Shown: positions 2,301-17,379 of the stretch, one piece after another
How positions within the stretch are numbered: the first letter of the stretch is position 1
Layout of the letters: each line of letters opens with the position of its first letter
Source: Gammaproteobacteria bacterium
GTDB taxonomy: Bacteria; Pseudomonadota; Gammaproteobacteria; SZUA-229
Direction of reading: 5' to 3'
Assembly: GCA_015488295.1 (NCBI GenBank)
Contig: WFOC01000079.1
Location: forward strand, 39,009-103,008
DNA length: 64,000 nt
Position numbers and translations under genes: made by a program
Notes under the pieces: generated by a model
The model's input: only the letters and a program-made list of their open reading frames with translations
Told to the model about the DNA's origin: nothing
Database searches by the model: none

Positions 2301-2606
2301 TTTGCTGCATTAGATACATTCTTTCAGCAAAAACAATAGATTGCATCTATTATCGCGACAGTACCACACCTGAAAACCTGATCTGAATCAAGAAAATAAC
2401 TACCCTTTTTGAGCACTACGCAAGTCGTCAGGTTTAGGTTAGAATACGCCCGCATTTTACGTGGTTGATGTTTTGCACACCGAAACAGGCTTCATCAGAA
2501 ATTGTTTCATCTGTCAGCAGCACACTAATCACAACTACAGAATTTTTAATTATTAGGCTGGTGCAGCATTTTGCAAAACCGGCGTGATCAACACTTGGAG
2601 ATACAG

Positions 2607-3800
2607 ATGATTAAACCTCATGGTTCTGATGAACTTAATCCGTTGTTCGTATACGACCCTGCTGAAAATGAAAAACTGCAGAAAGAAGCCGAAGGCCTGC
2701 CTTCTATCGTAGTCAGCTCTGCCTCTGCAGCCAATGCTGTGATGCTGGGCGCAGGTTATTTCAACCCACTGACCGGTTACATGAATAAAGCGGATGCGCT
2801 TTCTGTCGCCAAAGACATGAAAACCACATCAGGCCTGTTCTGGCCAACACCGGTTTTAAACCTGGTTGAAGACGCTGGCAACATCAAAGCCGGTGACCGC
2901 ATCGCGCTGAAAGATCCTAACGTTGAAGGCAACCCGGTTGTTGCAGTGATGGACGTTGAAGCCGTTGAAGAATTTTCTGACGATGACATCGAATTCATCT
3001 CAAAAAATGTTTACCGCCCAAGCCCGGATGAAGATCATCCTGGTGTGGATGCATTTAAAGCACAGGGTAAAGTTCTGCTTTCCGGCCCTATCCAGGTTCT
3101 GAACTTCTCTTACTTCCAGACTGAATTCCCTGACACTTTCCGCACTGCGGTTGAAATTCGTAACGAAATCGCTGAGCGCGGCTGGAAAAAAGTTGTTGCT
3201 TTCCAGACTCGTAACCCGATGCACCTGGCGCACGAAGAACTGTGTCACATGGCAATGGATCGTTTAGGTTGTGATGGCCTGGTTATCCACATGCTGTTAG
3301 GTAAGCTGAAACCTGGCGATATTCCTGCGCCTGTTCGTGACGCAGCGATTCGTAAAATGGTTGAGCTGTACTTCCCTGAAAACAGCGCCATGGTTACCGG
3401 TTACGGTTTCGACATGCTGTACGCTGGTCCTAAAGAAGGTGTGCTGCACGCTGTGTTCCGTCAGAACATGGGCGCAACGCATTTCATCATCGGTCGTGAC
3501 CACGCGGGCGTTGGCGATCACTACGGCGCGTTTGATGCACAGACTATCTTTGATGAAGAAGTACCAGCCGGTGCTCTGGAAATCGAAATCTTCAAAGCTG
3601 ACCACACTGCTTACTCTAAGAAATTAGATAAAGTTGTCATGATGTGTGAAGCACCTGACCACGAAAAAGATGATTTCGTTCTGCTGTCAGGTACAAAAGT
3701 ACGCGAGATGTTAGGCAACGGTATTGCACCGCCTAAAGAATTCTCACGTCCGGAAGTTGCACAGATCCTGATGGACTACTATGCAGGTCTGAATAAATAA
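2607..3800 (+). CDS. sat: Sulfate adenylyltransferase (ATP sulfurylase), dissimilatory type
   Basis: QTRNPMHLAHEEL and GRDHAGVG motifs. ATG at 2607 is preceded by GGAG; the listed ORF starts at an upstream TTG at 2571. Confidence 0.9.
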   Translation: MIKPHGSDELNPLFVYDPAENEKLQKEAEGLPSIVVSSASAANAVMLGAGYFNPLTGYMNKADALSVAKDMKTTSGLFWPTPVLNLVEDAGNIKAGDRIALKDPNVEGNPVVAVMDVEAVEEFSDDDIEFISKNVYRPSPDEDHPGVDAFKAQGKVLLSGPIQVLNFSYFQTEFPDTFRTAVEIRNEIAERGWKKVVAFQTRNPMHLAHEELCHMAMDRLGCDGLVIHMLLGKLKPGDIPAPVRDAAIRKMVELYFPENSAMVTGYGFDMLYAGPKEGVLHAVFRQNMGATHFIIGRDHAGVGDHYGAFDAQTIFDEEVPAGALEIEIFKADHTAYSKKLDKVVMMCEAPDHEKDDFVLLSGTKVREMLGNGIAPPKEFSRPEVAQILMDYYAGLNK

Positions 3801-3821
3801 AGTTCTTTCAGAGCTTTCATA

Positions 3822-3860
3822 AAAACGGCGCTGTCTCTTTTTGAGCAGCGCCGTTTTTTT
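3822..3860 (+). terminator. Rho-independent terminator after sat
   Basis: AACGGCGCTG...CAGCGCCGTT stem followed by T7. Confidence 0.7.
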
Positions 3861-3871
3861 ATGCATATAAA

Positions 3872-4015
3872 GATTAAAAGCATTTTTCACCACAGAGGCA
3901 CAGAGCACACAGAGTTTTTTTATCGTTAGCCGCGTCTGCGACGCATCTAACAATATATTATTTTTTCTCTGTGTGCTCTGTGCCTCTGTGGTGAATTACT
4001 TTTAAGCTTTTAATC
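3872..4015. repeat. Long palindromic element: perfect 28-bp inverted repeat (3887-3914 / 3967-3994) inside 10-bp outer arms
   Basis: TCACCACAGAGGCACAGAGCACACAGAG pairs perfectly with CTCTGTGTGCTCTGTGCCTCTGTGGTGA. Outer GATTAAAAGC/GCTTTTAATC arms overlap the apbE stop codon. The 52-nt loop contains a small GCGTCTGCGACGC hairpin. Confidence 0.8.
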
Positions 4016-4900
4016 AAGCCAGTAATCCACTTCCTGCAATTTCAAAAATGCTTCTGCATCGCCGCCCTGCAACATAGCCAGCGTTGACATCATGCCCGCC
4101 TCTACGCAGGTAGGCGCTGCGACACTCACCGTGTGCGGCGCACCAACCACAGGCCAGCCTGTTAGCGGATTTAATATGTGGCTGTAACGCACGCCGTCTT
4201 TTAGCAAATAACGATTGGCATCCCCGCTGGTGGCAATGGCACCACTGTATAACTGGAACATGCCACAGGCTTCATCAGAACCGGTAATCAAACGCCCGAC
4301 CGACCAGAAGGCTTTATCTTTACGTGCGGTAGTCATCGACAGGTCACCACCAAAATTCACCAGCACGCTTTGCCCGGTTTTTTGCCGCGCAATCTGCACA
4401 CAGCGATCAACGGCATACTCTTTACCGATGCCACCAAGATCGATCTCCATACCTGCCGGCAAAACGATGGTTGCATTTTCATGGCTAACTTTTTGCCAGC
4501 CGATATTTTTCAAAACCTTTTTCACCTGCTTTTTTGCTGGCAGATGATCACTACCATCAAAGTTCCAGACCTGGCGCAACACACCGGAGGTCACATCAAA
4601 CAGGCCGTCGCTTATTTCAAACAGCTCGTTGGAAAAATCCAGCAGGCGTGAGGTTTCTTCATCAATAGCAACAGCCTCACCCTGCGAATGATTTATTTTA
4701 AAAATAATATTATCTTTTTTATAACGACTGAACTTGTCTTCGATACGCCAGGCTTCGTCAGCCACAGCGTTGAGAATTTCCTGTGCCAGCAATTCGCCTT
4801 CGACTTCCATCAAAACATCGCAGGGACTGGCCATCGCCATGAAGGTGCCTTTCCAGAAATCGTTTTCTTTTTTTAATTCAGTGGCACGCATGTTTTTCAA
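4010..4900 (-). CDS. apbE: FAD:protein FMN transferase (ApbE family)
   Basis: ApbE signature GGIGKEYAVD and TSGDANRYL motifs. Length 296 aa. Confidence 0.85.
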   Translation of the reverse strand: MKNMRATELKKENDFWKGTFMAMASPCDVLMEVEGELLAQEILNAVADEAWRIEDKFSRYKKDNIIFKINHSQGEAVAIDEETSRLLDFSNELFEISDGLFDVTSGVLRQVWNFDGSDHLPAKKQVKKVLKNIGWQKVSHENATIVLPAGMEIDLGGIGKEYAVDRCVQIARQKTGQSVLVNFGGDLSMTTARKDKAFWSVGRLITGSDEACGMFQLYSGAIATSGDANRYLLKDGVRYSHILNPLTGWPVVGAPHTVSVAAPTCVEAGMMSTLAMLQGGDAEAFLKLQEVDYWLD

Positions 4901-4927
4901 AATCGTTAGAAAATTAAAAACATTATT

Positions 4928-5050
4928 TGTCCACAGATAAACACAAATAAACGCAAATATAAAAGCCGTATAACAAATACAGTAAAAAAATATTTTCTTT
5001 GCGTTTATTTGCGTTCATCTGTGGACGGTTAAACTTTTTAAGCTTTTATT
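4928..5050. repeat. Second long imperfect inverted-repeat element (arms 4928-4957 / 4998-5028) plus shared AAGCTTTTA flank
   Basis: TGTCCACAGATAAACACAAATAAACGCAAA pairs with TTTGCGTTTATTTGCGTTCATCTGTGGACGG with 2 mismatches. The flank CTTTTTAAGCTTTTATT resembles the 4001-4015 flank of the first element. Lies at the 3' end of the DUF971 gene. Confidence 0.75.
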
Positions 5051-5681
5051 TAGGCCGGGGCACAAACGCCACTTCATCACCATGCTCGATCAACGTGTAC
5101 GGCTCGGAAAACTGTTTGTTCACCGTCACCTGCAAACGGTCATCAGCAAAAGCTTCCTGCCAGCGCTCGCCACGTTTTCGCATCCACACCAGCAGGCTCT
5201 CGACATTAGTCACCGACTCGGGAACAATAACCTCCTCCTCGTCCTTGCCGGAGATTCTGGCCAGGTCAATAAAGTAAAGCAGCTTGATAACCACCTTGCC
5301 TTCCTGGTCAGTGATACGGGCATCACCCCGGCTCAGGCCGTGCTTTTCCAGACGCTCAAGATAAGCCTGCCAGTTGGCTTCATAATTTTTACCCAGCTCA
5401 TGCAACGTCGCCCAGGAATAAATACCGGTATCATGACCGTCATCAAAAGTGATCTTCAGTGCATAGGTACCCTGCGGGTCAAGCATGGAAATATTGACCA
5501 TCTGCTTGCCATGCACGGGCTTGTCCATCACCTTCACTTCTGCCGCAGTGGAAAACACGCGCAAATACTCACACGGGTACTGAAAGCGAAAACCATCGGT
5601 ATAGGCAATTTCCAGCAGACGTGATTTCTGGTGAAGTTTGATTTCGGTCGGACTAAAGTGGTTGTTTTCTGTTTCTGACAT
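5046..5681 (-). CDS. DUF971 domain fused to a MoaD/ThiS-like beta-grasp domain lacking the C-terminal GG
   Basis: N-terminal FRFQYPCEYLRV...ITFDDGHDTGIYSW matches the DUF971 pattern. C-terminal LQVTVNKQF...GDEVAFVPRPK is MoaD-like but ends in PRPK instead of GG. Confidence 0.6.
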   Translation of the reverse strand: MSETENNHFSPTEIKLHQKSRLLEIAYTDGFRFQYPCEYLRVFSTAAEVKVMDKPVHGKQMVNISMLDPQGTYALKITFDDGHDTGIYSWATLHELGKNYEANWQAYLERLEKHGLSRGDARITDQEGKVVIKLLYFIDLARISGKDEEEVIVPESVTNVESLLVWMRKRGERWQEAFADDRLQVTVNKQFSEPYTLIEHGDEVAFVPRPK

Positions 5682-6280
5682 TTAAAACTACATGCTCTCT
5701 GCTTGAATGATAACCGGGCCAGGCTATCAGGCCCGGCATAAAACAGCGCATATTCTACCTGTATTTTAAGCGCTGCAAGATTAATTCCCGTAAGGATAAT
5801 GATTCTCACTTAATATTGGCCGCCCGCCCTTGCAAGCCATTGATTTTTATAGACATAAAAACCATGCCACACTCATAAATAAAACTTATTGCAACCACAG
5901 CATTATTGTTTGGCGTTTGACCTCTTAGGGTCTAATCTGCACGCCTGAAAAGCGACTTGTTGTGTCGTTTTAATTGCTTTTACAGGTGCTTTGGGCATAC
6001 AATACGTGCCCCAACTTTAGCACCCTGGGCTCATTGTAATGATTCAACCGAATCCGGATGGGAACAGATAAAGCTGATATAACAGCAACTGTTATGTTGC
6101 TGGTAAACGAATTTTGATTCTAAACGGTAGCCTCTTCGGTAGTACCATTTTGGTAGTACAAGGGCGGCATCCAGAAAGATGAAAAAAGGTAGTTGTGAAA
6201 GAAATAGCCCTGCTGTCTTTTTCAACAAAACTATCGCAATTGCAATTGCATAAACTTTAAAACTCTAGGAGTTAATAATA

Positions 6281-6754
6281 ATGCCTACTTTTGTACGTAC
6301 TGAAAAGTGTGATGGATGTAAAGGCCAAGACCGTACAGCTTGCATGTACATCTGCCCACACGATTTAATGAAATTAGACAAAGATGGTTCTGACACAGGT
6401 CACGCCATGAAGTCTTACAACCAGGAACCAGAGCAATGCTGGGAATGTTATTCTTGCGTTAAAATCTGTCCTCAAAATGCTATCGAATGTCGTCACTATG
6501 CTGACGTTGTACCTCTGGGCGGCTCTGTACAGCCTTTACGTGGTACTGATTCAATTATGTGGACTATCAAGTTCCGTAACGGAAACATGAAGCGTTTCAA
6601 ATTCCCAATTCGCACCACTGCTGAAGGCTCTATCGATCCTTATGCTGGCAAACCAGAAGCTGACATGGCTAAGATCGAAGAGAACGGTTTCTTCAATCAC
6701 ATGGAACAGAACGGTTACCGTGCTGGTGATCCAAGCGAACTGATCTGTAAGTAA
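6281..6754 (+). CDS. aprB: Adenylylsulfate (APS) reductase beta subunit
   Basis: MPTFVRTEKCDGCKG...CMYICPHD ferredoxin-like N-terminus typical of AprB, immediately upstream of aprA. Confidence 0.9.
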   Translation: MPTFVRTEKCDGCKGQDRTACMYICPHDLMKLDKDGSDTGHAMKSYNQEPEQCWECYSCVKICPQNAIECRHYADVVPLGGSVQPLRGTDSIMWTIKFRNGNMKRFKFPIRTTAEGSIDPYAGKPEADMAKIEENGFFNHMEQNGYRAGDPSELICK

Positions 6755-6802
6755 TCGTATTACAATCAAATAAATAATTTTAGAATATTAGAGGATATAA
6801 AG

Positions 6803-8788
6803 ATGGCCGAATTTGGTAATCCAGATGTCGTCGAAGAAGAAGTAGACATTCTTCTTATCGGCGGTGGTATGGCTTGTTGTGGTACAGCGTTCGAACTTCC
6901 ACGTTGGATCGAAGCATCAGGCAAAGACATTTCTGTTAAATTAGTTGATAAAGCTGCAATGGACCGTTCAGGTGCTGTTGCTCAGGGTTTGTCTGCTATT
7001 AACACTTACATTGGTCCTGAACAGGATCCAGCTGACTACGCTCGTATGGTTTCTAACGACCTTATGGGTATTACTCGTGATGACCTCGCGTACGACCTGG
7101 GTCGCCACGTAGATGAGTCTGTTCACCTGTTTGAAGAATGGGGTCTGCCTATTTGGAAAACTGACGAGAACGGCGAGCGTTTCGACGGTTCTAAAGGCAT
7201 GACTTCACTGAAAGACGGTGGCAAGCCTGTACGTTCTGGTAAATGGCAAATCATGATTAATGGTGAGTCTTACAAATGGATTGTTGCTGAAGCTGCGAAA
7301 AAAGCTTTAGGTATCGACAATATCCAGGAACGTATTTTCATCGTTAAGCTGATCAACGACAAAAACGACCCTAGCAGAATTGCTGGCGCGGTTGGTTTCT
7401 CAACTCGTGAAGACAAGATCGTTATCTACAAAGCGAAAGCTATCCTGCTGGCTGCCGGTGGTTGTGTAAACATCTTCCGTCCACGTTCAGTTGGTGAAGG
7501 TACAGGTCGTGCATGGTACCCAGTATGGAACGCTGGTTCTACTTACTCAATGGCTGCTGAAGCAGGCGCTGAGCTGACTCTGATGGAAAACCGTTTCGTA
7601 CCGACTCGTTTCAAAGACGGTTACGGTCCTGTTGGCGCATGGTTCCTGCTGTTTAAAGCACAGGCTACTAACGCTTACGGCGAAGCTTACATGCAGAAAA
7701 ACAAAGAAATGCTGGATGACTACCCTCCATACGGTCAGGCTGCGGTTCCTGCTTCTTGTCTGCGTAACCACTTAATGCTGAAAGAGATGAAAGACGGTCA
7801 CGGTCCTATCTGGATGGATACTGTTACAGCTCTGGGCAACCTGCGCGAAACACTGTCTCCACGTGAAGTTAAGCACCTTGAAGCTGAAGCATGGGAAGAT
7901 TTCCTTGACATGTGTGTTGGCCAATGTGGTATCTGGGTTGGTGAAAACATTGAGCCAGAGAAGAAAAACTCTGAGTTAATGCCTACCGAACCGTACCTGC
8001 TGGGTTCTCACTCTGGTTGTTGTGGTATCTGGACTTCAGGTCCTACAGACGTAGGCGCGCCTACAACTGAAACTGAAGAAGGCGTACCTGAGCATCTGCC
8101 ACAGGGCTGGAACTGGGGCTACCGTGGTATGACCACAGTAAACGGTCTGTTCACAGCTGGTGACGGTGTTGGTGCTTCTGGCCACAAATTCTCTTCAGGC
8201 TCTCACGCTGAAGGTCGTATGTGTGCTAAATCAATGCTGAAGTACGTTTTAGACAATGAAGATTACAAACCAGAATTAGATACTTCTGTTGAAGATCTGG
8301 TTGCTGCAATCTATCAGCCTGTTCGTACTTACCTTGAGTTTAAAGACTACACAACAGCTATCGACGTTAACCCTAACTACATCACTCCTAAAATGCTGCA
8401 GTTCCGTCTGCAGAAAATCATGGACGAGTATGTAGCTGGTGTTGCAACTTACTACAACACTAACGCCGAAATGATGAAAGTTGCTGGTGAAAAACTGGAC
8501 GAACTGAAAATCGACGCTAAGAAGATGCGTGCTAAAGACCTTCACGAATTACTTCGTGCATGGGAAAACTATCACCGCATCCTGACAGCTGAAGCTCACT
8601 TGAAACACATCGAATTCCGTCAGGAATCTCGTTACCCTGGTTTCTACTACCGCACTGACAAGAACTTCGTTGATGAAGAAAACTGGCATTGCTTCGTAAA
8701 CTCTATTTACGATAAAGAGACTGGTAAGTGGACTTGCTTCAAACGTGCACACGTTGATTTGGTAGACAAGTCTAAACTGTTCAAATAA
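6803..8788 (+). CDS. aprA: Adenylylsulfate (APS) reductase alpha subunit (FAD)
   Basis: MAEFGNPDVVEEEVDILLIGGGMACCG FAD-binding N-terminus. 661 aa, typical AprA size. Confidence 0.95.
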   Translation: MAEFGNPDVVEEEVDILLIGGGMACCGTAFELPRWIEASGKDISVKLVDKAAMDRSGAVAQGLSAINTYIGPEQDPADYARMVSNDLMGITRDDLAYDLGRHVDESVHLFEEWGLPIWKTDENGERFDGSKGMTSLKDGGKPVRSGKWQIMINGESYKWIVAEAAKKALGIDNIQERIFIVKLINDKNDPSRIAGAVGFSTREDKIVIYKAKAILLAAGGCVNIFRPRSVGEGTGRAWYPVWNAGSTYSMAAEAGAELTLMENRFVPTRFKDGYGPVGAWFLLFKAQATNAYGEAYMQKNKEMLDDYPPYGQAAVPASCLRNHLMLKEMKDGHGPIWMDTVTALGNLRETLSPREVKHLEAEAWEDFLDMCVGQCGIWVGENIEPEKKNSELMPTEPYLLGSHSGCCGIWTSGPTDVGAPTTETEEGVPEHLPQGWNWGYRGMTTVNGLFTAGDGVGASGHKFSSGSHAEGRMCAKSMLKYVLDNEDYKPELDTSVEDLVAAIYQPVRTYLEFKDYTTAIDVNPNYITPKMLQFRLQKIMDEYVAGVATYYNTNAEMMKVAGEKLDELKIDAKKMRAKDLHELLRAWENYHRILTAEAHLKHIEFRQESRYPGFYYRTDKNFVDEENWHCFVNSIYDKETGKWTCFKRAHVDLVDKSKLFK

Positions 8789-8822
8789 GTCCCGACTTAT
8801 TAGATAGTTGAGTTACAGAAGT

Positions 8823-8850
8823 CCGGGCATCATTAGATGCCCGGATTTTT
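8823..8850 (+). terminator. Rho-independent terminator after aprA
   Basis: CCGGGCATCATTAGATGCCCGG hairpin plus ATTTTT. Confidence 0.7.
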
Positions 8851-9050
8851 CAATTAAGGGCACAACAATTGTCTTTAATTGAGAAATCATAAACATCTGA
8901 TAATTTTCAAAATACCCGTAGGCTGGGCCAGGCGCTTTTTGCCGTAACCCGACAACAAGGTAGCCTGTATTAACCTGCTAAATGCCGGGTTGCGACGAAA
9001 AACACCTGACCTAACCTACGAATAATATCTTCCATTGCCAAGAGTTACTT

Positions 9051-9962
9051 ATGAGCCAAGACGACACTTTCAAATTTGAACTGCCCCACTCAAGCCCAGT
9101 GGAACCTACCCGACTTGAACTGGACGACAAATTAAAATTTCGTTGCCACCGCGGCGTGTCCTGCTGGAACCGCTGTTGTTCACGTGCAGACGTAACGCTC
9201 GCGCCTTACGACATCCTGCGCATGAAGGATGCCCTCGGTATGGACACCACAGAATTCCTTAAACAACACACCGTTCCTTTCGAACTCGACATGCATAGCG
9301 TTCCCGGCTTAAAGCTGCGCACCGATGATGAAGGAGCCTGCCTGTTCATGGGCAAAGAAGGCTGCTCGGTTTATGACAACCGCCCCACTGCCTGCCGTTA
9401 TTACCCGTCCGGCCTGCTGTCAATGAAATCCATCAGCGAAGCCACTGACGAACGTCACTTCCTGCTGATCAAGGAAGACCACTGTAAAGGCCATGACGAA
9501 GACCAGATTCAAACCATCGGCGAATACCGCAAGGCACAGGGCGTGGAAGAATACGACGACCTCAACCACGAGTGGTACCAGATCATCCTGAAGAAAAAAT
9601 CCACCGGCCCCAGCATCGGCAAACCATCCGACATGAGCCTGCAGATGTTCTTCATGGCCAGCTACGACATGGACCGCTTCCGCCGCTTCGTAATGAGCGA
9701 TTCCTTCATCAAGATGTACGACCTGAGCGACGACGAATACGCCGAACTGGAAAAAGATGATATCGCACTGATGAAATTCGGTTTCAGATTAATGAAGCAG
9801 GTTTTCTTCGGTGAGCTAACCATCAAGGAACGTGAAGGTGCCTGGGAAGAGCGCATCAAGGAACGCAAGGAAATTCTTGAGTTCCGCAAGCAGGCGGAAA
9901 TTGCTGCACATCAGAAAAGAGAAGAAGAAGCACGCAACGCATCGATAGACGATAAAGAGTAA
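9051..9962 (+). CDS. YkgJ/UPF0153-family putative Fe-S (Cys-cluster) protein with K/E-rich C-terminal tail
   Basis: CHRGVSCWNRCC cluster plus ACLFMGKEGCSVYDNRPTACRYYP matches the CxxCxxCC zinc/iron-chelating domain family. The C-terminal 50 aa are highly charged. Confidence 0.7.
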   Translation: MSQDDTFKFELPHSSPVEPTRLELDDKLKFRCHRGVSCWNRCCSRADVTLAPYDILRMKDALGMDTTEFLKQHTVPFELDMHSVPGLKLRTDDEGACLFMGKEGCSVYDNRPTACRYYPSGLLSMKSISEATDERHFLLIKEDHCKGHDEDQIQTIGEYRKAQGVEEYDDLNHEWYQIILKKKSTGPSIGKPSDMSLQMFFMASYDMDRFRRFVMSDSFIKMYDLSDDEYAELEKDDIALMKFGFRLMKQVFFGELTIKEREGAWEERIKERKEILEFRKQAEIAAHQKREEEARNASIDDKE

Positions 9963-9967
9963 AAGAT

Positions 9968-10048
9968 AGTTGGCAGTCGTTAGTTTGCAGTTAGCAGCAA
10001 AAGCTGGAAACAAAAAAACTTTTAACTACTAACTGACGACTGCCAACT
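9968..10048. repeat. GTTGGCAG palindromic repeat element, copy A
   Basis: AGTTGGCAGTCGTTAGTT ... AACTAACTGACGACTGCCAACT inverted repeat followed by TTTT. Probable terminator between the ykgJ-like gene and the phosphoesterase gene. Confidence 0.6.
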
Positions 10049-10063
10049 TTTCAATAAAAAACT

Positions 10064-10591
10064 ATGACGAACAAAAACGTAACCGTCGGCATCCTGTCCG
10101 ACTCGCATGGCTACCTTGACCCGAGAGTCGCAGAAGTTGTCAACCAGTGTGACTATATCGTACACGCCGGCGACATTTTCAATGCACAGGTTTTAGCGCA
10201 GCTGAAGCCTGCGAAAAAGCTGGTCGCGGTTAGCGGCAATAACGATTACCCGGCCTTCTGGAAAGCGGAAGAAGCAGCTATCGTTAAAGCCTTACCCCCT
10301 ACCGCAAAACTACAACTGCCCGGCGGCACCATCTACGTCGAACACGGCCACCGTCTGGGCAACCACCCCGACCACAACGAACTGCGCCGCGACCACGCCG
10401 AAGCCAAACTGATCGTTTACGGTCATACCCATCACCGCATCATCGACCAGCAGGCCGAACCCTGGGTGGTAAATCCTGGCGCTTCAGGCAAGGTAAGAAC
10501 ACACGGCGGGCCTTCGTGTCTGGTGTTGCATGCCAGCGAAGAGGAATGGAAAATTGAGACGGTTCTGTTTGCAGATTCTGCTGCAGCTTAA
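10064..10591 (+). CDS. Metallophosphoesterase (YfcE/MJ0936-like calcineurin-type phosphoesterase)
   Basis: DSHG, GD, GNND, HGH and GHTHH metal-binding motifs in canonical order. Confidence 0.8.
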   Translation: MTNKNVTVGILSDSHGYLDPRVAEVVNQCDYIVHAGDIFNAQVLAQLKPAKKLVAVSGNNDYPAFWKAEEAAIVKALPPTAKLQLPGGTIYVEHGHRLGNHPDHNELRRDHAEAKLIVYGHTHHRIIDQQAEPWVVNPGASGKVRTHGGPSCLVLHASEEEWKIETVLFADSAAA

Positions 10592-10686: not shown

Positions 10687-11421
10687 CTACGCTTTTATAT
10701 AAACCCAGCCCTTCTTCAAACGCTCGGGAATCAACTCTCTGGCAGCTCTATCTGTTGTCACACCATCCATTAGCACAATTTCAACCCCTTCTTTTTTATG
10801 CGCTTTATCGATAGAGCGCTGACAGGCAAAAACTGCAACATCCTCGTCATCAACCAGCTTTTTTATGCGCGCAAGATAAGGCGACACACCAGGGCGCAAG
10901 ACATTAATGCCAGCCTTGTTGGTCACAATATCCAGCTTTATAGGCTTGTCCGCTTTACGGTAACTCGCCAGTAAATTATCAGCCTCATCTAATGCCGCTT
11001 TAACAATCTGCTGATTATTGGAGTCGATGTGTAATATGATCCTGCGCTCTTTATGGTCGACAGTGACATGGTTGGCAACAAACTGAAAAGTATTCTCAGC
11101 CGAAACTGCATTCACCGAATTAGGACTGTATTCATAAGTTGACCAGCCCAGCAACACACCCACAACCAGCGTCACAGAAGCGGCCACAGCCCTGTTTACA
11201 AATGAACCTGAACGTCGTCTGTCGGGACTCCTGTGGCGCGATGGCGGCACTTCACTGTAGGCATAGCCAATCAGCTCGCGTACCGCTTTTAACTGGCACA
11301 CCTGTTCACGCAAATCTTTGTTATCCAGCAAAGCTTCGTGTATCTCATTCATTTCATCGGTATCGAGCTGTTCATCGATGAATAGATTTAATTTATCTTC
11401 TGTAATGTCCTTGATGTTCAT
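10687..11421 (-). CDS. Anti-sigma factor with a single TM helix and a periplasmic DsrE/YchN-like domain
   Basis: Translationally coupled to the ECF sigma gene, sharing base 11421. TM segment AVAASVTLVVGVLLGW. The C-terminal 140 aa are paralogous to the two secreted DsrE-like proteins and carry the conserved Cys in FACQRS. Confidence 0.7.
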   Translation of the reverse strand: MNIKDITEDKLNLFIDEQLDTDEMNEIHEALLDNKDLREQVCQLKAVRELIGYAYSEVPPSRHRSPDRRRSGSFVNRAVAASVTLVVGVLLGWSTYEYSPNSVNAVSAENTFQFVANHVTVDHKERRIILHIDSNNQQIVKAALDEADNLLASYRKADKPIKLDIVTNKAGINVLRPGVSPYLARIKKLVDDEDVAVFACQRSIDKAHKKEGVEIVLMDGVTTDRAARELIPERLKKGWVYIKA

Positions 11422-11969
11422 TATTTAACCCTCCGCAATTTGAACTCGGATAAATCATCCGAACCAAATTCAAGTAACTGCTGTTTCAAGTTTTTGCGAG
11501 CTCTGAACAAACGACTCATGACAGTACCGATTGGCACTTCTGTAATCTCTGCAATCTGCGCATAACTAAAACCGGCAAAATCAGCCAGTGTAACGACTTC
11601 ACGTAATGGTAGCGGCAACTGCTCAACAGAAGCCCTGACGCGTTTGACAATTTGTGATTGTTGATAGTTCTCAGAATGGCCGGCCTGATCTTCGTCATGC
11701 ATCTCAACAAACTCGACATTGCGTCCTTTCACTCGCAGATAGTCCTGCCAGCAATTGTACAAAATCCGGTATAACCAGCTATCCATGGTCTCCACATCGC
11801 GCAGCCTGGATGCATTTTTTATCGCTTTGTAGATCGTCTCCTGCACCAGGTCATCAGCCAGCGCCGGATCGTGACACCATGTGTACGCAATGCGATACAA
11901 CTTGTTTCGCCGGGCGGCAAACTCCGATTTTAATGAGAACGCGGCCACCAGATCTTTAACTATTTTCAT
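11421..11969 (-). CDS. ECF-type RNA polymerase sigma factor
   Basis: Region 2 LVQETIYKAIKN...WLYRILYNCWQDYLR and region 4 FSYAQIAEITEVPIGTVMSRLFRARKNL. Start taken at MKIVKDL. Confidence 0.85.
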   Translation of the reverse strand: MKIVKDLVAAFSLKSEFAARRNKLYRIAYTWCHDPALADDLVQETIYKAIKNASRLRDVETMDSWLYRILYNCWQDYLRVKGRNVEFVEMHDEDQAGHSENYQQSQIVKRVRASVEQLPLPLREVVTLADFAGFSYAQIAEITEVPIGTVMSRLFRARKNLKQQLLEFGSDDLSEFKLRRVK

Positions 11970-12080
11970 AAAAACTCCCAATAACATAATAGAGACGCAG
12001 CAACAGGAAAAATATTCTCAAAAATAATTGTGAATATTTTACGCCCCCGCCCCGTCTCTTAGCTGTCGGAATTTATCAAG

Positions 12081-12614
12081 ATGTATGCAGAAAAACAAAT
12101 GATTCAGAAAATTTACCTGATAGTGCTCACTTTATTCACGGTTCAGAGCAACATCGCTCATGCCAACCTCGATCTCCCGCTTGAAGGAATCGATGGCAGA
12201 CAGCACAAGGTTTCAGAATATCTCAACCAGGGCAAATGGGTGGTTTTGAATATTTTGGGCACCCGCTGCCCACCCTGCCGTGAAGAAATGCCTGAACTGG
12301 TACATTTTCACGACGAACAGAATGGAGCCATGGTGGTAGCCATCGCCATTGACTTTCCCAGCTACGGTTACGCAAAACAGGGCGAAGTCGCAAGCTTTGC
12401 AGACGACTACCTCATTGACTTCCCCGTCCTCCTGAGCGACTCGAGCATCACAGAAAAGCTGGGGCTGGGCACACTGGAAGGCCTGCCGACAACATACATA
12501 TTCAGCCCGGAAGGCAAGGTCGCTGGCATGCAGGTCGGCGGCATCAATCAGAACATACTGAAGAACTTTATAAAAAAATCAAAGCTGCAAGTTCCCGGCA
12601 GCGAAAACCAATAA
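12081..12614 (+). CDS. TlpA/ResA-like periplasmic thiol:disulfide oxidoreductase (thioredoxin fold, CPPC)
   Basis: Signal peptide, then GKWVVLNILGTRCPPCREEMPEL thioredoxin-like CxxC motif. Confidence 0.75.
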   Translation: MYAEKQMIQKIYLIVLTLFTVQSNIAHANLDLPLEGIDGRQHKVSEYLNQGKWVVLNILGTRCPPCREEMPELVHFHDEQNGAMVVAIAIDFPSYGYAKQGEVASFADDYLIDFPVLLSDSSITEKLGLGTLEGLPTTYIFSPEGKVAGMQVGGINQNILKNFIKKSKLQVPGSENQ

Positions 12615-12659: not shown

Positions 12660-13148
12660 ATGAAAACACTACAAACAAAACTACTGGCCGCTTTTTTGAT
12701 GAGCATGTGCCTGTTGATGATGAACGCTGCCAATGCAGGCGACCGTTACGGAAAACAAAAAGTGGTCTATCACATCAATTATGACAACCCCAAAAAACAG
12801 TCCGGTGCACTGCGCAACATCCAGAATCACATCAACGCTGTCGGTGCCGAAAATCTTGACCTGAGAGTTGTATTACACGGCCACGGTCTGTCCTTACTGC
12901 TGGACCCGGATTCATTAGCCAAGCTGAAAAAATTCAAGCATGCCAATGCAAATGAAACCATGACAGCCAAAATCGACAATCTGAAAAACCAGGGTATCAA
13001 ATTCAACGTCTGCGCTAACACCGTTCGCGGCAGAAAAGTTGACATCGACTCTGACCTGCACAATGTTGACAAGAGCGACATCGTTCCTAGCGGCGTTGCC
13101 GAACTGGCTCATCTGCAATCATTAGGGTACGCCTACGTTAAACCATAA
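12660..13148 (+). CDS. Secreted DsrE/DsrF-like (YchN-fold) family protein, paralog 1
   Basis: Signal peptide MKTLQTKLLAAFLMSMCLLMMNAANA. KVVYHINYDNP...ALRNIQNHI...LRVVLHGHGL...FNVCANT matches the DsrE-family topology with the conserved Cys. Confidence 0.65.
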   Translation: MKTLQTKLLAAFLMSMCLLMMNAANAGDRYGKQKVVYHINYDNPKKQSGALRNIQNHINAVGAENLDLRVVLHGHGLSLLLDPDSLAKLKKFKHANANETMTAKIDNLKNQGIKFNVCANTVRGRKVDIDSDLHNVDKSDIVPSGVAELAHLQSLGYAYVKP

Positions 13149-13343
13149 GACTGCATATTCATGTCATTACGTGACTCTCACAGCTTGCTAAAAGCAGATA
13201 TTTTATCTGCCTCCTGCCGAGCGCCACGTGATGACAGTTTTTAAAAACATGTGAATAAATTATTACTCACGCCGTCTTGTAGTAATGGAATAGCAAAACC
13301 AAAACCATTATTTTAAAAATAAAAACCTAAATAGGAGATATTC

Positions 13344-13784
13344 ATGAAAAAATTAACTTCCATCTTTTTACTATTGATAGCAATGACGGGAAGCTATCAG
13401 ATACAGGCTGGTGAAGATGACAAGCCTTTTGCAGAAGAAAGAATCGTACTTCAAATCAGTGATCCCAACCCTTTCAAACAAACACTGGTACTCAATGTCG
13501 CAACCAACCTGATCAAATACTACGGCCAGGACAAAGTTGATATTGAAATCGTCGCCTTCGGCCCCGGCCTGCGTCTGATGTTCAAGGACAACGTAAACCA
13601 CAAGCGTATTAAAGGCCTGTCAAACAGCGGTGTAAAATTTGCAGCATGTAAAAACACCATTGCAGGCATGACCAAAAAACTAGGTCACGCACCTGAATTA
13701 CATGCCAGCGCAGTACCAGTCTCTGCCGGCGTAGTACGCATTATCGAATTAGAAAATCAGGGTTTCAAACTGATCAAACCATAA
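13344..13784 (+). CDS. Secreted DsrE/DsrF-like (YchN-fold) family protein, paralog 2
   Basis: Signal peptide. RIVLQISDPNP...LVLNVATNL...IEIVAFGPGL...FAACKNT. C-terminal GFKLIKP resembles paralog 1 GYAYVKP. Confidence 0.65.
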   Translation: MKKLTSIFLLLIAMTGSYQIQAGEDDKPFAEERIVLQISDPNPFKQTLVLNVATNLIKYYGQDKVDIEIVAFGPGLRLMFKDNVNHKRIKGLSNSGVKFAACKNTIAGMTKKLGHAPELHASAVPVSAGVVRIIELENQGFKLIKP

Positions 13785-13838: not shown

Positions 13839-15200
13839 ATGAATTTAAAAAGAAACATGTTATTAAAAACAGCTGGAGTTGTGCTGTTATCAGGCGCTTC
13901 AACTGTACATTCCGCAAACTGGCTGGCACTACAGGGCACAGAACCTGACGGTCAGTCGGCACGTGCCAGAGTATGGGGTTTTGTACAACCTGAATATCAG
14001 TCAATGAGCGGCAGCAAAGTTGAAGCCGGCGCATGGAAAGGCAGCGAAGCTGTTTTTAACCAGATCGGTCCAGACCTGAAAACCAGCAGCTCATTCAATA
14101 TACGACGCGCCCGTATCGGTGTACGTGGCACCGGTTTTCCACTAGACAACAAAGTCAACTATTTCTTCCTGGCTGAATTTGGTAACAACGGCATCACTCG
14201 CCCGGGCAACGGAACAGGTAGTGCAAAAGTTACTGATGCCAGCGTAACACTGAGCCACATTCCCGGTGCCCGCATTCGTGTTGGTCAATTCAAAACACCC
14301 GGCGCGGAAGAAGGCCTGCAAGCTATTCACGTTTTTGACTACATCAACTTTACCGGCGTAACCAACGGCCTGTTACTGGAACGTTTCTTTGATAGTGATG
14401 GGTCAGACACCTTCTTCACACCAAGCAGCAACTCCGGTGCCGGCGGCAACAAGAATGGCGCAAATGGCCCTGTCGGTGCCTTCCGTGACATTGGTGTCCA
14501 GGTATTTGATACCTTCAAAGTCAATGACTGGGAACTCAGTTACGCTGCCATGCTTGGTAACGGAAACGGCATAACCCGTGGTGACAATGATGACAACAAG
14601 GAAACTTATCTGTACGCATCTGCAGAACTGGTCTTTGGTGGTAAAGGTGGTCGTCGCCAGGGCTGGAAAATGTTCGTATGGAACCAGGATGGCAAACGCA
14701 CAATTAAAGCAACACCCGCTCAGGTCGAAGGCGAATTTGATCGCACACGTAGCGGTCTGGGCACAACCTTCCGCAAAGGAAAATACCGAGCAGCCGCTGA
14801 ATACATTACAGCTGACGGCATGATCTTTAACGGCACAGATGGTGGTGCAGTACCTGGCTCAACTTCTGCTGGCCCGGGTGTGACAGCTTCTTTCAACATG
14901 GAAACAGTCGGCGAAGCAAATGGTTATTACGCCCACTTTGGTTACATGATTATGCCTAACCTCGAACTGGATATTCGCTATGACGTTTATAACCGTATGA
15001 CTGATGTTGCAGCAAAAGAAAGAAAGTTCACAACAACAACACTTGGTGCACAGTACTTCTTTAACAAGAAGAGCCGTTTCACTTTAAACTACGAACTACG
15101 CGATGCCGAAGCACCTAACCTTGCTTCAACACACAATGCCAACAAGATATTGGGTGAAATCGACAATCGTATTTCAGCACAATTGCTGATCATCTTCTAA
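13839..15200 (+). CDS. Outer-membrane beta-barrel porin (phosphate-selective porin O/P-like)
   Basis: Signal peptide, alternating amphipathic beta-strand pattern, and a C-terminal aromatic residue (...SAQLLIIF). Confidence 0.6.
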   Translation: MNLKRNMLLKTAGVVLLSGASTVHSANWLALQGTEPDGQSARARVWGFVQPEYQSMSGSKVEAGAWKGSEAVFNQIGPDLKTSSSFNIRRARIGVRGTGFPLDNKVNYFFLAEFGNNGITRPGNGTGSAKVTDASVTLSHIPGARIRVGQFKTPGAEEGLQAIHVFDYINFTGVTNGLLLERFFDSDGSDTFFTPSSNSGAGGNKNGANGPVGAFRDIGVQVFDTFKVNDWELSYAAMLGNGNGITRGDNDDNKETYLYASAELVFGGKGGRRQGWKMFVWNQDGKRTIKATPAQVEGEFDRTRSGLGTTFRKGKYRAAAEYITADGMIFNGTDGGAVPGSTSAGPGVTASFNMETVGEANGYYAHFGYMIMPNLELDIRYDVYNRMTDVAAKERKFTTTTLGAQYFFNKKSRFTLNYELRDAEAPNLASTHNANKILGEIDNRISAQLLIIF

Positions 15201-15280
15201 GGAATATTTTTCCTGGATAGATTTAAAAAATAAAGGTAAATCCTGCGTTAATCATCATGCTATGTGATACACGCTTTGAG

Positions 15281-15312
15281 GGGGTCGAAAGATCCCCTCT
15301 TTTTTTGTTTAC
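15281..15312 (+). terminator. Rho-independent terminator after porin gene
   Basis: GAGGGGGTCGAAAGATCCCCTC hairpin followed by T7. Confidence 0.7.
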
Positions 15313-15363: not shown

Positions 15364-15831
15364 ATGAACAGCAAAACACTAAAAATAATTTTCAGCCTCA
15401 TAACACTCAGCTCTGGCTGCACTACTGTTATCGCAAGCGAAACAGATGGCATAATAAAAACGAAAAGCGCACACAGCGTTACAGAAACAATAAACAGACT
15501 GGAAGCCGTATTAAACAAAAAAGGCATGACCATATTCAAACGCGTCAACCACACTGCTGGCGCAAACAAGGCCGGCCTGCAACTGCGCCCCACCGAATTG
15601 CTGATATTCGGCAACCCGAAAGTCGGCACACCATTGATGCAATGCTCACAAACCGCAGCACTGGACCTTCCACAAAAAGCACTGGCATACAAGGATAAAA
15701 AGGGACAGGTATGGCTGATCTACAATGACCCGGCCTACATGGCAGAAAGACACCATCTTCACGGCTGCGAGAAAGCAGTTCAGAAAGTCACCAATGCACT
15801 GGCTAGATTTGCCAGTGCAGCTACAAAATAA
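15364..15831 (+). CDS. DUF302 domain lipoprotein
   Basis: Lipobox LSSGC. ETINRLEAVLNKKGMTIFKRVNH...LRPTELLIFGNPKVGTPLM...DLPQKALAYKDKKGQVWLIYNDPAYM matches the DUF302 pattern. Confidence 0.7.
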   Translation: MNSKTLKIIFSLITLSSGCTTVIASETDGIIKTKSAHSVTETINRLEAVLNKKGMTIFKRVNHTAGANKAGLQLRPTELLIFGNPKVGTPLMQCSQTAALDLPQKALAYKDKKGQVWLIYNDPAYMAERHHLHGCEKAVQKVTNALARFASAATK

Positions 15832-16017: not shown

Positions 16018-16404
16018 ATGAAATCATTCAAGCGCACACTGGCTCTGATCCTGTCAATTTCATTATTCAGCATTTCTTTTGGCCATGCTCATGCCGCCAT
16101 AGTCACAAACGACCAAATCATACATCAAGCCCAACAGGAAATAGATAAAACAACTCTGCTAACAATGATCAATCACTTAGATGTTCAGGAACAATTACTC
16201 AGCATGGGTGTCTCCAGCACCGACATAAAAGAGCGCATCAAGCAGATGACACAGGAAGAAATTGCACAACTCAACTCGCAACTTGATAATTTACCCGCCG
16301 GTGGCGATATACTTGGTATCGCCGTTCTCATATTTATTGTTTTTGTCGTTACAGATGTCATTGGCGCAACAGATCTATTCCCGTTCATTCACCCCATCAA
16401 ATAA
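16018..16404 (+). CDS. PA2779-family small protein (signal peptide, GG motif, C-terminal hydrophobic segment)
   Basis: 128-aa protein. It resembles the PA2779 family and sits upstream of a PA2778-type peptidase. Confidence 0.55.
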   Translation: MKSFKRTLALILSISLFSISFGHAHAAIVTNDQIIHQAQQEIDKTTLLTMINHLDVQEQLLSMGVSSTDIKERIKQMTQEEIAQLNSQLDNLPAGGDILGIAVLIFIVFVVTDVIGATDLFPFIHPIK

Positions 16405-16410
16405 TAATGA

Positions 16411-17379
16411 ATGAAAACACTGATACTGCCTATATGCCTGCTAGTCTTAAGCGGCTGCGCATCAACACCACAAAGCAGTCACATAAAAGCTAATGGCCCG
16501 GGCTTCCTGCCATCAGCTATCGAATTGACAGACACACCTTTTTTTCCACAGACACAACATCAATGTGGGCCTGCGGCATTGGCAACCGTGCTACAGGCTC
16601 ACAACATAAAAGCCACACCAGAAACCCTGTCCAGCCAGGTCTACATTCCTGAACGTCAGGGCAGCCTGCAGATAGAAATGGCTGTCGCTGCACGTCGACA
16701 CGGGATGTTGCCATATCCTCTGGACACCCAAATGACCGCACTTTTCGCAGAAATAGCTGCCGGTAACCCGGTGCTGGTTTTACAGAACCTCAGTTTTGAA
16801 TGGTATCCAAAATGGCACTACGCAGTGGTCGTTGGATATGATTATGACAATCAGGAAATCACCCTTCGATCCGGTACAAGCAAACGCTGGGTTACACCTT
16901 TTGAAGTATTCGAACGAACATGGCAACGTGCTGATTTCTGGGCACTGGTCATCGTACCTGCAGGTGTGGTGCCCGCAACAGCAGAACCACTGCGTTATCT
17001 AAAAACCGCCTATGCCTTCGAAGAAACAGGTCACTATAAACTTGCTCTCAAAACATACCGGTCAGCTAGCAAACGCTGGCCTGAAATCAGCATCACCTGG
17101 ATAACACTGGGAAACATGGCTTATAAAAATCATTATTGGCTTGAGGCCATTAATGCATTTAATACCGCTTTAAACATTGACCCAAAATCAATCACCAGTT
17201 GGAATAATCTGGCTTATACACTACATGCCTATGGCTGTCAGAAACCAGCCATAAAGGCGCTCCAATGTGGTTTAAACATTACGCCAACTGATAAAAACCT
17301 ATTAAATTCATGGAAAGAGTTACATAACAACCCTGCTAACAATCAAATAAACTGCCCAAACATTCAATGTTACAAATAA
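16411..17379 (+). CDS. PA2778-family C39-like cysteine peptidase with C-terminal TPR repeats
   Basis: QCGPAALATVLQAH papain-like/C39 catalytic Cys motif. The C-terminal half carries TPR-like AYKNHYWLEAINAFNTALNIDP repeats. Confidence 0.7.
   Translation: MKTLILPICLLVLSGCASTPQSSHIKANGPGFLPSAIELTDTPFFPQTQHQCGPAALATVLQAHNIKATPETLSSQVYIPERQGSLQIEMAVAARRHGMLPYPLDTQMTALFAEIAAGNPVLVLQNLSFEWYPKWHYAVVVGYDYDNQEITLRSGTSKRWVTPFEVFERTWQRADFWALVIVPAGVVPATAEPLRYLKTAYAFEETGHYKLALKTYRSASKRWPEISITWITLGNMAYKNHYWLEAINAFNTALNIDPKSITSWNNLAYTLHAYGCQKPAIKALQCGLNITPTDKNLLNSWKELHNNPANNQINCPNIQCYK

Follow-up and report, generated by a model that had tools for sequence, protein, structure and literature searches.

A predicted single-pass anti-sigma factor with a periplasmic DsrE-fold domain and an invariant cysteine: a candidate sensor of reactive sulfur

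We analyzed a 64-kb stretch of DNA (64,000 nucleotides, hereafter the window) from contig WFOC01000079.1 of a gammaproteobacterium of the SZUA-229 lineage, in which one gene of the list of open reading frames (ORFs), at 10687..11421 on the minus strand, encodes a protein of 244 amino acids. Several lines of evidence agree that this protein is the anti-sigma factor of the adjacent extracytoplasmic function (ECF) sigma factor, whose binding and inhibition are predicted from sequence and model. It combines an anti-sigma domain, one transmembrane (TM) helix, and a periplasmic DsrE-fold domain with an invariant cysteine, Cys200. The reading that we favor, with a rough probability of 0.45, is that the ECF sigma factor and its single-pass anti-sigma factor use this periplasmic domain and Cys200 as a sensor of reactive sulfur. 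An original prediction, made from the letters of the sequence, had proposed a disulfide or persulfide switch on the same cysteine; overall, its interpretation is partly supported by the results described below.

Results

Pairing with an ECF sigma factor and anti-sigma identity

The gene directly follows a co-oriented ECF sigma factor gene in 45 of the 46 places that were examined, namely the window, 37 genome loci (36 of them paired), five metagenome contigs at 28–33% identity, and three cultured genomes. The genome loci cover only the clade of 42–78% identity, and the distant contexts are the five contigs and the three cultured genomes. The single exception is locus L037, where the anti-sigma gene is cut off by the end of the contig. 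The sigma factor gene of the window (11421..11987, minus strand) matches Pfam Sigma70_r2 and r4_2 and scores above the cut-off of TIGR02937. Its TAA stop and the ATG of the anti-sigma gene have one base in common (TAATG), and GGAGG stands just 5' of this ATG. The sigma factor is probably translated from the ATG at 11969 (MKIVKD...) and not from the listed start at 11987 (MLLGVFMKIVKD), because homologues begin at the second methionine, with MK(I/V)VKN after GGGAG, and because the predicted -10 element ends at 11993.

The cytoplasmic anti-sigma domain (residues 1–56; 11254..11421, minus strand) consists of three helices, and this N-terminal helical fold is the one by which class I transmembrane anti-sigma factors are recognized. 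Among 84 family members, Pfam detected zf-HC2 in 16 and RseA_N in three. When a profile of the N-domain was compared with the Protein Data Bank (PDB), RseA_N and MucA were the two best sequence matches (E ~0.02), and seven of the eight Foldseek matches of the isolated N-domain model were ChrR, RslA, or RskA, each being individually non-significant. No Pfam match to the FecR or DUF4880 domains was found in the window protein or its relatives, and the outer-membrane neighbor is a porin of the Porin_O_P type, not a TonB-dependent transducer; for these reasons the protein is not considered an anti-sigma factor of the FecR-type cell-surface signaling systems.

A periplasmic domain with the DsrE fold

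The AlphaFold2 model of the anti-sigma protein (mean pLDDT 87.5) contains helices at residues 8–15, 21–33, and 35–56, a single TM helix at 74–96 (11134..11202, minus strand), a disordered linker at 102–120, and an alpha/beta domain at 126–243 (10693..11046, minus strand). It thus bears out the predicted order of anti-sigma domain, one TM helix, and DsrE-like domain. The number of lysine and arginine residues within 15 positions averaged 3.5 before the TM helix versus 0.67 after it, and was higher before than after in 80 of 84 sequences; this bias places the DsrE-fold domain in the periplasm. Within the helix, G88, G92, and W93 are kept in 135, 141, and 132 of 146 sequences, respectively. The G88-x3-G92-W93 motif could serve helix-helix association or provide a helix-breaking site for an intramembrane protease, as judged from its sequence.

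The C-terminal domain matches the three-layer alpha/beta fold of DsrE (DsrE/DsrF-like superfamily, Pfam PF02635), so that the alternative of a different fold, which the original prediction had named as its possible refutation, did not materialize. Membership in the superfamily rests on structure and on profile links because the window protein, with 14.3 bits, falls below the Pfam gathering cut-off of 22.7; 23 of 84 relatives matched Pfam DsrE at E<=0.01, the best at 1.2e-5. The best match in both sequence and structure was the MTH1491/ST0148 branch (COG1416-type), which carries an A-C-x-x-[ST] motif after strand 3. The domain is DsrE-type at the level of the superfamily, and its closest branch is not DsrE proper.

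Conservation and equivalence of Cys200

Conservation was assessed in 146 sequences, consisting of the window protein and 145 representatives of 50%-identity clusters (25–50% identity). Cys200 (codon TGT, 10822..10824, minus strand) was found in all of them, as were D16, W239, and Y241, and H131, N168, G171, R234, and G238 were each conserved in more than 90%. The expectation that the cysteine be conserved across orthologous anti-sigma factors was thus borne out. Exactly one periplasmic cysteine was present in 145 of the 146 sequences. An intramolecular disulfide switch is therefore excluded, and the chemistry left for Cys200 is predicted to be an adduct (persulfide or thiosulfonate) or an intermolecular disulfide; of the switch originally proposed, only these forms survive.

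The HxxxCxxC zinc motif of zinc-containing anti-sigma (ZAS) factors occurred in none of the 146 sequences, as had been noted for the window protein. The latter has two cysteines in total, C42 and C200. Cys42 (codon 11296-11298, minus strand) lies in helix 3 of the cytoplasmic anti-sigma domain and was retained in 107 of 146 sequences (73%) although the zinc motif is absent. It could form a sigma contact or act as a second redox input. With Cys42 kept to this extent, the earlier statement that sensing must be periplasmic does not follow.

To relate Cys200 to known sulfur-carrying residues, TusD of E. coli K-12 and DsrE of A. vinosum (PDB 2HY5) were cut exactly at the cysteine and the fragments were scanned against Pfam. 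Residues 1–78 of TusD and of DsrE ended at position 77 of the Pfam DsrE model, and the fragments from Cys78 onward began at 77. Both halves of a DsrE-like paralogue encoded in the window (paralogue 1, see below), truncated likewise, mapped its cysteine to position 77 as well. The profile of the anti-sigma C-domain in turn aligned Cys200 with the cysteines of paralogue 2 (E=4.8e-15) and paralogue 1 (E=1e-9). With hhalign, the C-domain could not be aligned directly to a profile of the two sequences DsrE and TusD. The equivalence of Cys200 and Cys78, which had been proposed before, is upheld as a transitive one, linked through the paralogues and Pfam position 77. In the PDB alignment, Cys200 fell on the second cysteine of the MTH1491 CAC motif, which is Cys72 in the numbering of PMC5495134. 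Cys78 of DsrE carries sulfur, according to Stockdreher et al. (2012) as cited in PMC6620896.

Promoter motifs and the predicted regulon

Alignment of the divergent intergenic regions revealed a back-to-back pair of ECF-type promoter motifs, GGAATAww-N15/16-CGTCT. The core pattern GAATA-N15/16-CGTCT occurred three times in the window compared to 0.05 expected occurrences; no shuffle reached three, and all three copies lie in this locus. One copy (N15; 11993..12017, minus strand) is located upstream of the sigma/anti-sigma operon, the divergent copy (N16; 12032..12057, plus strand) upstream of a TlpA-like gene, and the third (13253..13277, plus strand) upstream of DsrE-like paralogue 2. The positions of the motif recur in almost every related close locus, and a relaxed form, GAAT[AT]-N14-17-CGTC, appeared as a bidirectional pair in the loci of 28–33% identity and in Sulfuricella and Sulfuritortus. 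From this pattern, we infer that the sigma/anti-sigma operon is autoregulated. The sigma factor also appears to control periplasmic DsrE-like paralogues with the same cysteine together with a periplasmic thiol-disulfide oxidoreductase, as far as the motifs can tell.

Locus L012 carries an insertion of ~140 bp (6245-6400) between the two back-to-back motifs that is absent from the other close loci.

Genes behind the predicted promoters

The window genes described here lie on the plus strand. The first gene behind the divergent motif (12081..12614) encodes an exported TlpA/ResA-like thiol-disulfide oxidoreductase with a CPPC motif (Pfam AhpC-TSA and Redoxin; similarity to NCBIfam ResA and TlpA). 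It is followed by periplasmic DsrE-like paralogue 1 (12660..13148; Pfam DsrE E=3e-11), which has a signal peptide, by periplasmic DsrE-like paralogue 2 (13344..13784), the closest relative of the anti-sigma sensor domain, and by an outer-membrane anion-type porin (Porin_O_P by Pfam, 13839..15200) that is syntenic in the distant loci. A terminator-like hairpin (15278-15299) follows the porin gene. Behind it lies the gene of an exported DUF302 protein (15364..15831) without a promoter motif of its own, which adjoins the module in many, but not all, loci. N-terminal signal sequences were read from the sequences of the redoxin, both DsrE-like paralogues, the porin, and the DUF302 protein.

Across loci, the core of the conserved module consists of the sigma factor, the anti-sigma factor, the divergent DsrE-like gene, and the porin, and it is frequently extended by the redoxin, a second DsrE-like gene, and DUF302. 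By BLASTP, the anti-sigma protein and paralogue 2 are 27% identical (E=3e-4); pairwise BLASTP against paralogue 1 gave noise only, and this relationship appears only with the profile. The cysteine column was occupied in 98 of 100 aligned DsrE-fold domains from all loci, and the two gapped rows (L001 3-275 and L036 4838-5125) probably stem from ORFs that a contig end or a frameshift has truncated. Paralogue 2 has a glutamine in place of the conserved histidine after strand 1 (LQIS, compared to LHID in the anti-sigma factor and YHIN in paralogue 1) and does not contain the anti-sigma-specific residues N168, R234, and W239. Sensor and carriers therefore have the cysteine in common, but not the whole pocket. 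No genes of the DsrF or DsrH type were found in the locus; the only DsrE-fold neighbors in the window are the two MTH1491-like ORFs.

The only NCBIfam similarity of the porin was a weak partial match to ExtI (E=5e-6). ExtI is the porin of the Geobacter operon for selenite and tellurite reduction, in which a porin is said to be paired with a rhodanese-type sulfurtransferase. If so, this operon is a possible parallel, by analogy, for a porin that is paired with a sulfur-transfer protein.

In Thiohalobacter sp. IOR34 (locus L045), several copies of a GC-rich repeat (~100-200 bp) occupy positions 5350-6340 upstream of the sigma gene, the place at which other genomes carry the DsrE-like gene and the porin gene. 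At the far end of the repeat region, one isolated promoter motif remains on the opposite strand (5500-5523).

Hosts and surroundings of the module

On the other side of the sigma and anti-sigma genes, the window contains sat and aprBA, and the host is therefore considered a sulfur oxidizer. In the window clade of 42–78% identity (window 2571-10591; L001-L036), the module adjoins sat, apbE, a GBBH-like/ThiS fusion, and aprBA; the same conserved block also includes a CxxCxxCC (YkgJ-type) protein and a metallophosphoesterase. More distant members of the family no longer have this block beside the module. Downstream of DUF302, the window encodes a DUF6627 protein and a C39-like peptidase that contains TPR repeats (16018-17379), which were detected at this place in only one of the fetched loci, L011.

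A search of 1.84 billion cluster representatives (50% identity clusters) returned 847 clusters at E<=1e-3 and 544 at E<=1e-10; the close homologues at the cluster level numbered 430, and nearly all of the best 150 matches were full length (~240 amino acids). Named members belong to sulfur-oxidizing Beta- and Gammaproteobacteria (Sulfuricella, Sulfuritortus, Thiohalobacter, Thiotrichales, and Acidiferrobacterales). Its cultured hosts include Sulfuricella denitrificans skB26 and Sulfuritortus calidifontis, and marine and sediment metagenomes contain it very frequently. Database labels are inconsistent: the Sulfuricella member is called a 'transmembrane anti-sigma factor', the Sulfuritortus and JGI members an 'intracellular sulfur oxidation DsrE/DsrF family protein', and one UniRef entry a 'zinc-finger domain-containing protein'. 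Full-text literature searches yielded no description of an anti-sigma/DsrE fusion or of the gene module, and neither the paper that re-classified the ECF sigma factors nor the one on class I anti-sigma factors mentions DsrE in its main text. A transcriptome of Thioalkalivibrio under arsenite (PMC6620896), in which DsrE/F-like genes and a porin respond, was considered and dropped, as these genes are not next to a sigma/anti-sigma pair.

Discussion

A possible sulfur switch

A sulfur or thiol switch based on Cys200 is plausible from the sequence data. In the resting state, the cytoplasmic domain would hold the sigma factor at the membrane. Reactive sulfur in the periplasm, either sulfane sulfur such as polysulfide and persulfide, or thiosulfate, would load Cys200 covalently, directly or with the soluble DsrE-like carriers as donors. 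In its modified form, the domain might then change its conformation or oligomeric state, by which the juxtamembrane linker (residues ~97-125) would become exposed to proteolysis and subsequent intramembrane cleavage, or the cytoplasmic grip would be loosened in another way. The freed sigma factor would direct more expression of itself and of the porin, carrier, and redoxin genes, and removal of the adduct by the TlpA-like reductase could return the switch to its resting state. The release mechanism itself is something that we infer, and the genomic context strengthens it because the sigma factor appears to control periplasmic paralogues with the same cysteine and a thiol-disulfide oxidoreductase.

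An extended form of this proposal is possible but doubtful, namely that a sulfur relay doubles as a signaling pathway and that the pair is the first sigma-factor-based periplasmic sensor of sulfane sulfur or thiosulfate. Sulfur would enter via the co-regulated porin, load the soluble DsrE-like carriers, and pass to the cysteine of the anti-sigma factor; the covalent mark on this cysteine would trigger release of the ECF sigma factor, and the TlpA-like reductase would erase it.

Several points weigh against sulfur sensing through Cys200. The link between the sigma factor and sulfur compounds is drawn here from sequence and context, and the promoters are predicted from a sequence pattern and not from mapped starts of transcription. 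For MTH1491 and ST0148, the nearest relatives in structure, no biochemical function is known, so that sulfur binding in that branch, and with it the acceptance of persulfide by the periplasmic domain, is an extrapolation. In MTH1491, an engineered surface cysteine was labeled selectively over the endogenous cysteines (PMC5495134); the cysteine equivalent to Cys200 may therefore be partly buried. Cys42, kept in 73% of the family, could contribute to sensing, and the assumption of release by proteolysis is borrowed from the analogous RseA-type factors. Finally, the Thiohalobacter sigma/anti-sigma pair stands without an adjacent DsrE-like or porin gene.

Alternative explanations

Among the alternatives, sensing by protein contact fares best, although we regard it as unlikely. 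The domain of the anti-sigma factor would take part in mixed oligomers with the soluble paralogues or dock on the porin, and release of the sigma factor would follow the abundance or the sulfur-loading of the partner in a feedback or partner-switch arrangement, with the cysteine mattering only within an interface or relay that the partners share. DsrE-fold proteins are obligate oligomers: the closest relative with a solved structure, MTH1491, forms a homotrimer (PMC5495134), and the titles of 2HY5 and 2D1P describe DsrEFH and TusBCD as hetero-oligomers. The paralogy of the sensor with co-regulated soluble proteins fits such contacts, as does the conserved GxxxG-W motif of the TM helix, which suggests helix-helix association. 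However, the absolute invariance of a single cysteine in the sensor and its paralogues exceeds the usual needs of an interface, and a dedicated thiol-disulfide oxidoreductase belongs to the same promoter-linked unit in the window clade.

Distinctly less probable is a general periplasmic sensor of thiol redox state, which would respond to oxidative or disulfide stress and not to sulfur compounds. Once the periplasm turns oxidizing, a disulfide would link Cys200 to a second anti-sigma chain or to another protein, and the TlpA-like reductase would be an induced repair enzyme. A single cysteine of the reactive type and a TlpA/ResA-like CPPC redoxin as the first gene behind one predicted promoter are consistent with such a sensor, and RsrA is a precedent for a thiol-based anti-sigma switch. 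Many family loci, though, retain the DsrE-like gene and the porin but have no redoxin; an anion porin and proteins of the sulfur-carrier type would make an odd oxidative-stress regulon, and the named members come from sulfur oxidizers.

We give still less weight to the possibility that the C-terminal domain is a membrane-tethered sulfur-handling protein with a catalytic cysteine, the sigma factor being freed in response to a general envelope signal or simply as the anti-sigma factor turns over. It is true that the cysteine and its surrounding motif were inherited from a family with free-standing members. Yet the fusion is kept, at almost constant length, over at least 544 clusters at 50% identity, and it is tightly coupled to the promoters of the paralogues, which together indicate a regulatory role of the periplasmic domain. 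A last alternative, in which the protein has no anti-sigma role and its N-terminal helices are a mere anchor for a periplasmic DsrE-like protein beside a sigma gene, is highly improbable, even though Pfam gave no significant anti-sigma match for the window protein on its own and the structural matches of its N-domain are individually non-significant.

Comparison with known systems

The predicted anti-sigma factor resembles RseA/MucA and the zf-HC2 factors of class I (RseA-sigmaE, RsiW-sigmaW, and RslA-sigmaL) in its short N-terminal helical domain, its single TM helix with the N-terminus inside, and its extracytoplasmic sensor. As with RseA and RsiW, its gene is translationally coupled to the sigma gene in an apparently autoregulated operon. 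In contrast to these factors, the periplasmic part is a DsrE fold and not an RseB-binding or unstructured region, the zinc ligands are found in none of the 146 sequences, and, unlike in the RseA-type set, the model has three helices before the TM helix. With RsrA-sigmaR and other ZAS switches, the proposed switch has in common that the sigma factor would be freed by chemistry on a cysteine of its anti-sigma factor. RsrA, however, is a soluble, cytoplasmic, zinc-binding protein that forms an intramolecular disulfide, while the present protein has a single periplasmic cysteine in a different fold.

Fold and cysteine position are those of DsrE (DsrEFH, A. vinosum) and TusD (TusBCD, E. coli), which are subunits of cytoplasmic heterohexamers relaying sulfur to DsrC or TusE. 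Here, the domain is periplasmic and tethered, has no DsrF/H-type partners nearby, and shares only ~11% identity with DsrE. MTH1491 (1L1S) and ST0148 (2PD2) are free-standing cytoplasmic proteins, both archaeal and of the COG1416 type, and MTH1491 is trimeric; in the family described here, the domain is fused and periplasmic.

SqrR, CstR, BigR, and FisR types are soluble cytoplasmic DNA-binding persulfide sensors in which two cysteines form di- to tetrasulfide bridges. The proposed switch would share with them the modification of cysteine by sulfane sulfur as input, but would follow a one-cysteine, periplasmic, and sigma-factor-based route. The ECF26-type sigma factors RpoE1 and RpoE4 of Sinorhizobium meliloti respond to sulfite and thiosulfate. 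Like the system predicted here, each is an autoregulated sigma/anti-sigma pair with a small local regulon of genes for sulfur oxidation in the periplasm; the anti-sigma factors have a COG5662 domain instead of the DsrE fold, and the regulon comprises sulfite dehydrogenase (PMC3511301).

Significance

Little is understood of how chemolithotrophic sulfur oxidizers perceive reduced sulfur outside the cytoplasm. The known sulfur-responsive regulators are, to our knowledge, cytoplasmic DNA-binding proteins. The system described here offers a compact candidate, with one cysteine, one sigma factor, and three predicted promoters, that is present in cultured strains. It would add a new type of sensor domain to the repertoire of ECF sigma/anti-sigma pairs, and it provides a first functional handle on the uncharacterized MTH1491-type proteins, on the conserved pair of DsrE-like and porin genes, and on the often-adjacent DUF302 gene. 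If the sulfur relay outlined above were to hold true, it would be the first function for the MTH1491/COG1416 branch and the first regulatory and periplasmic use of the DsrE fold.
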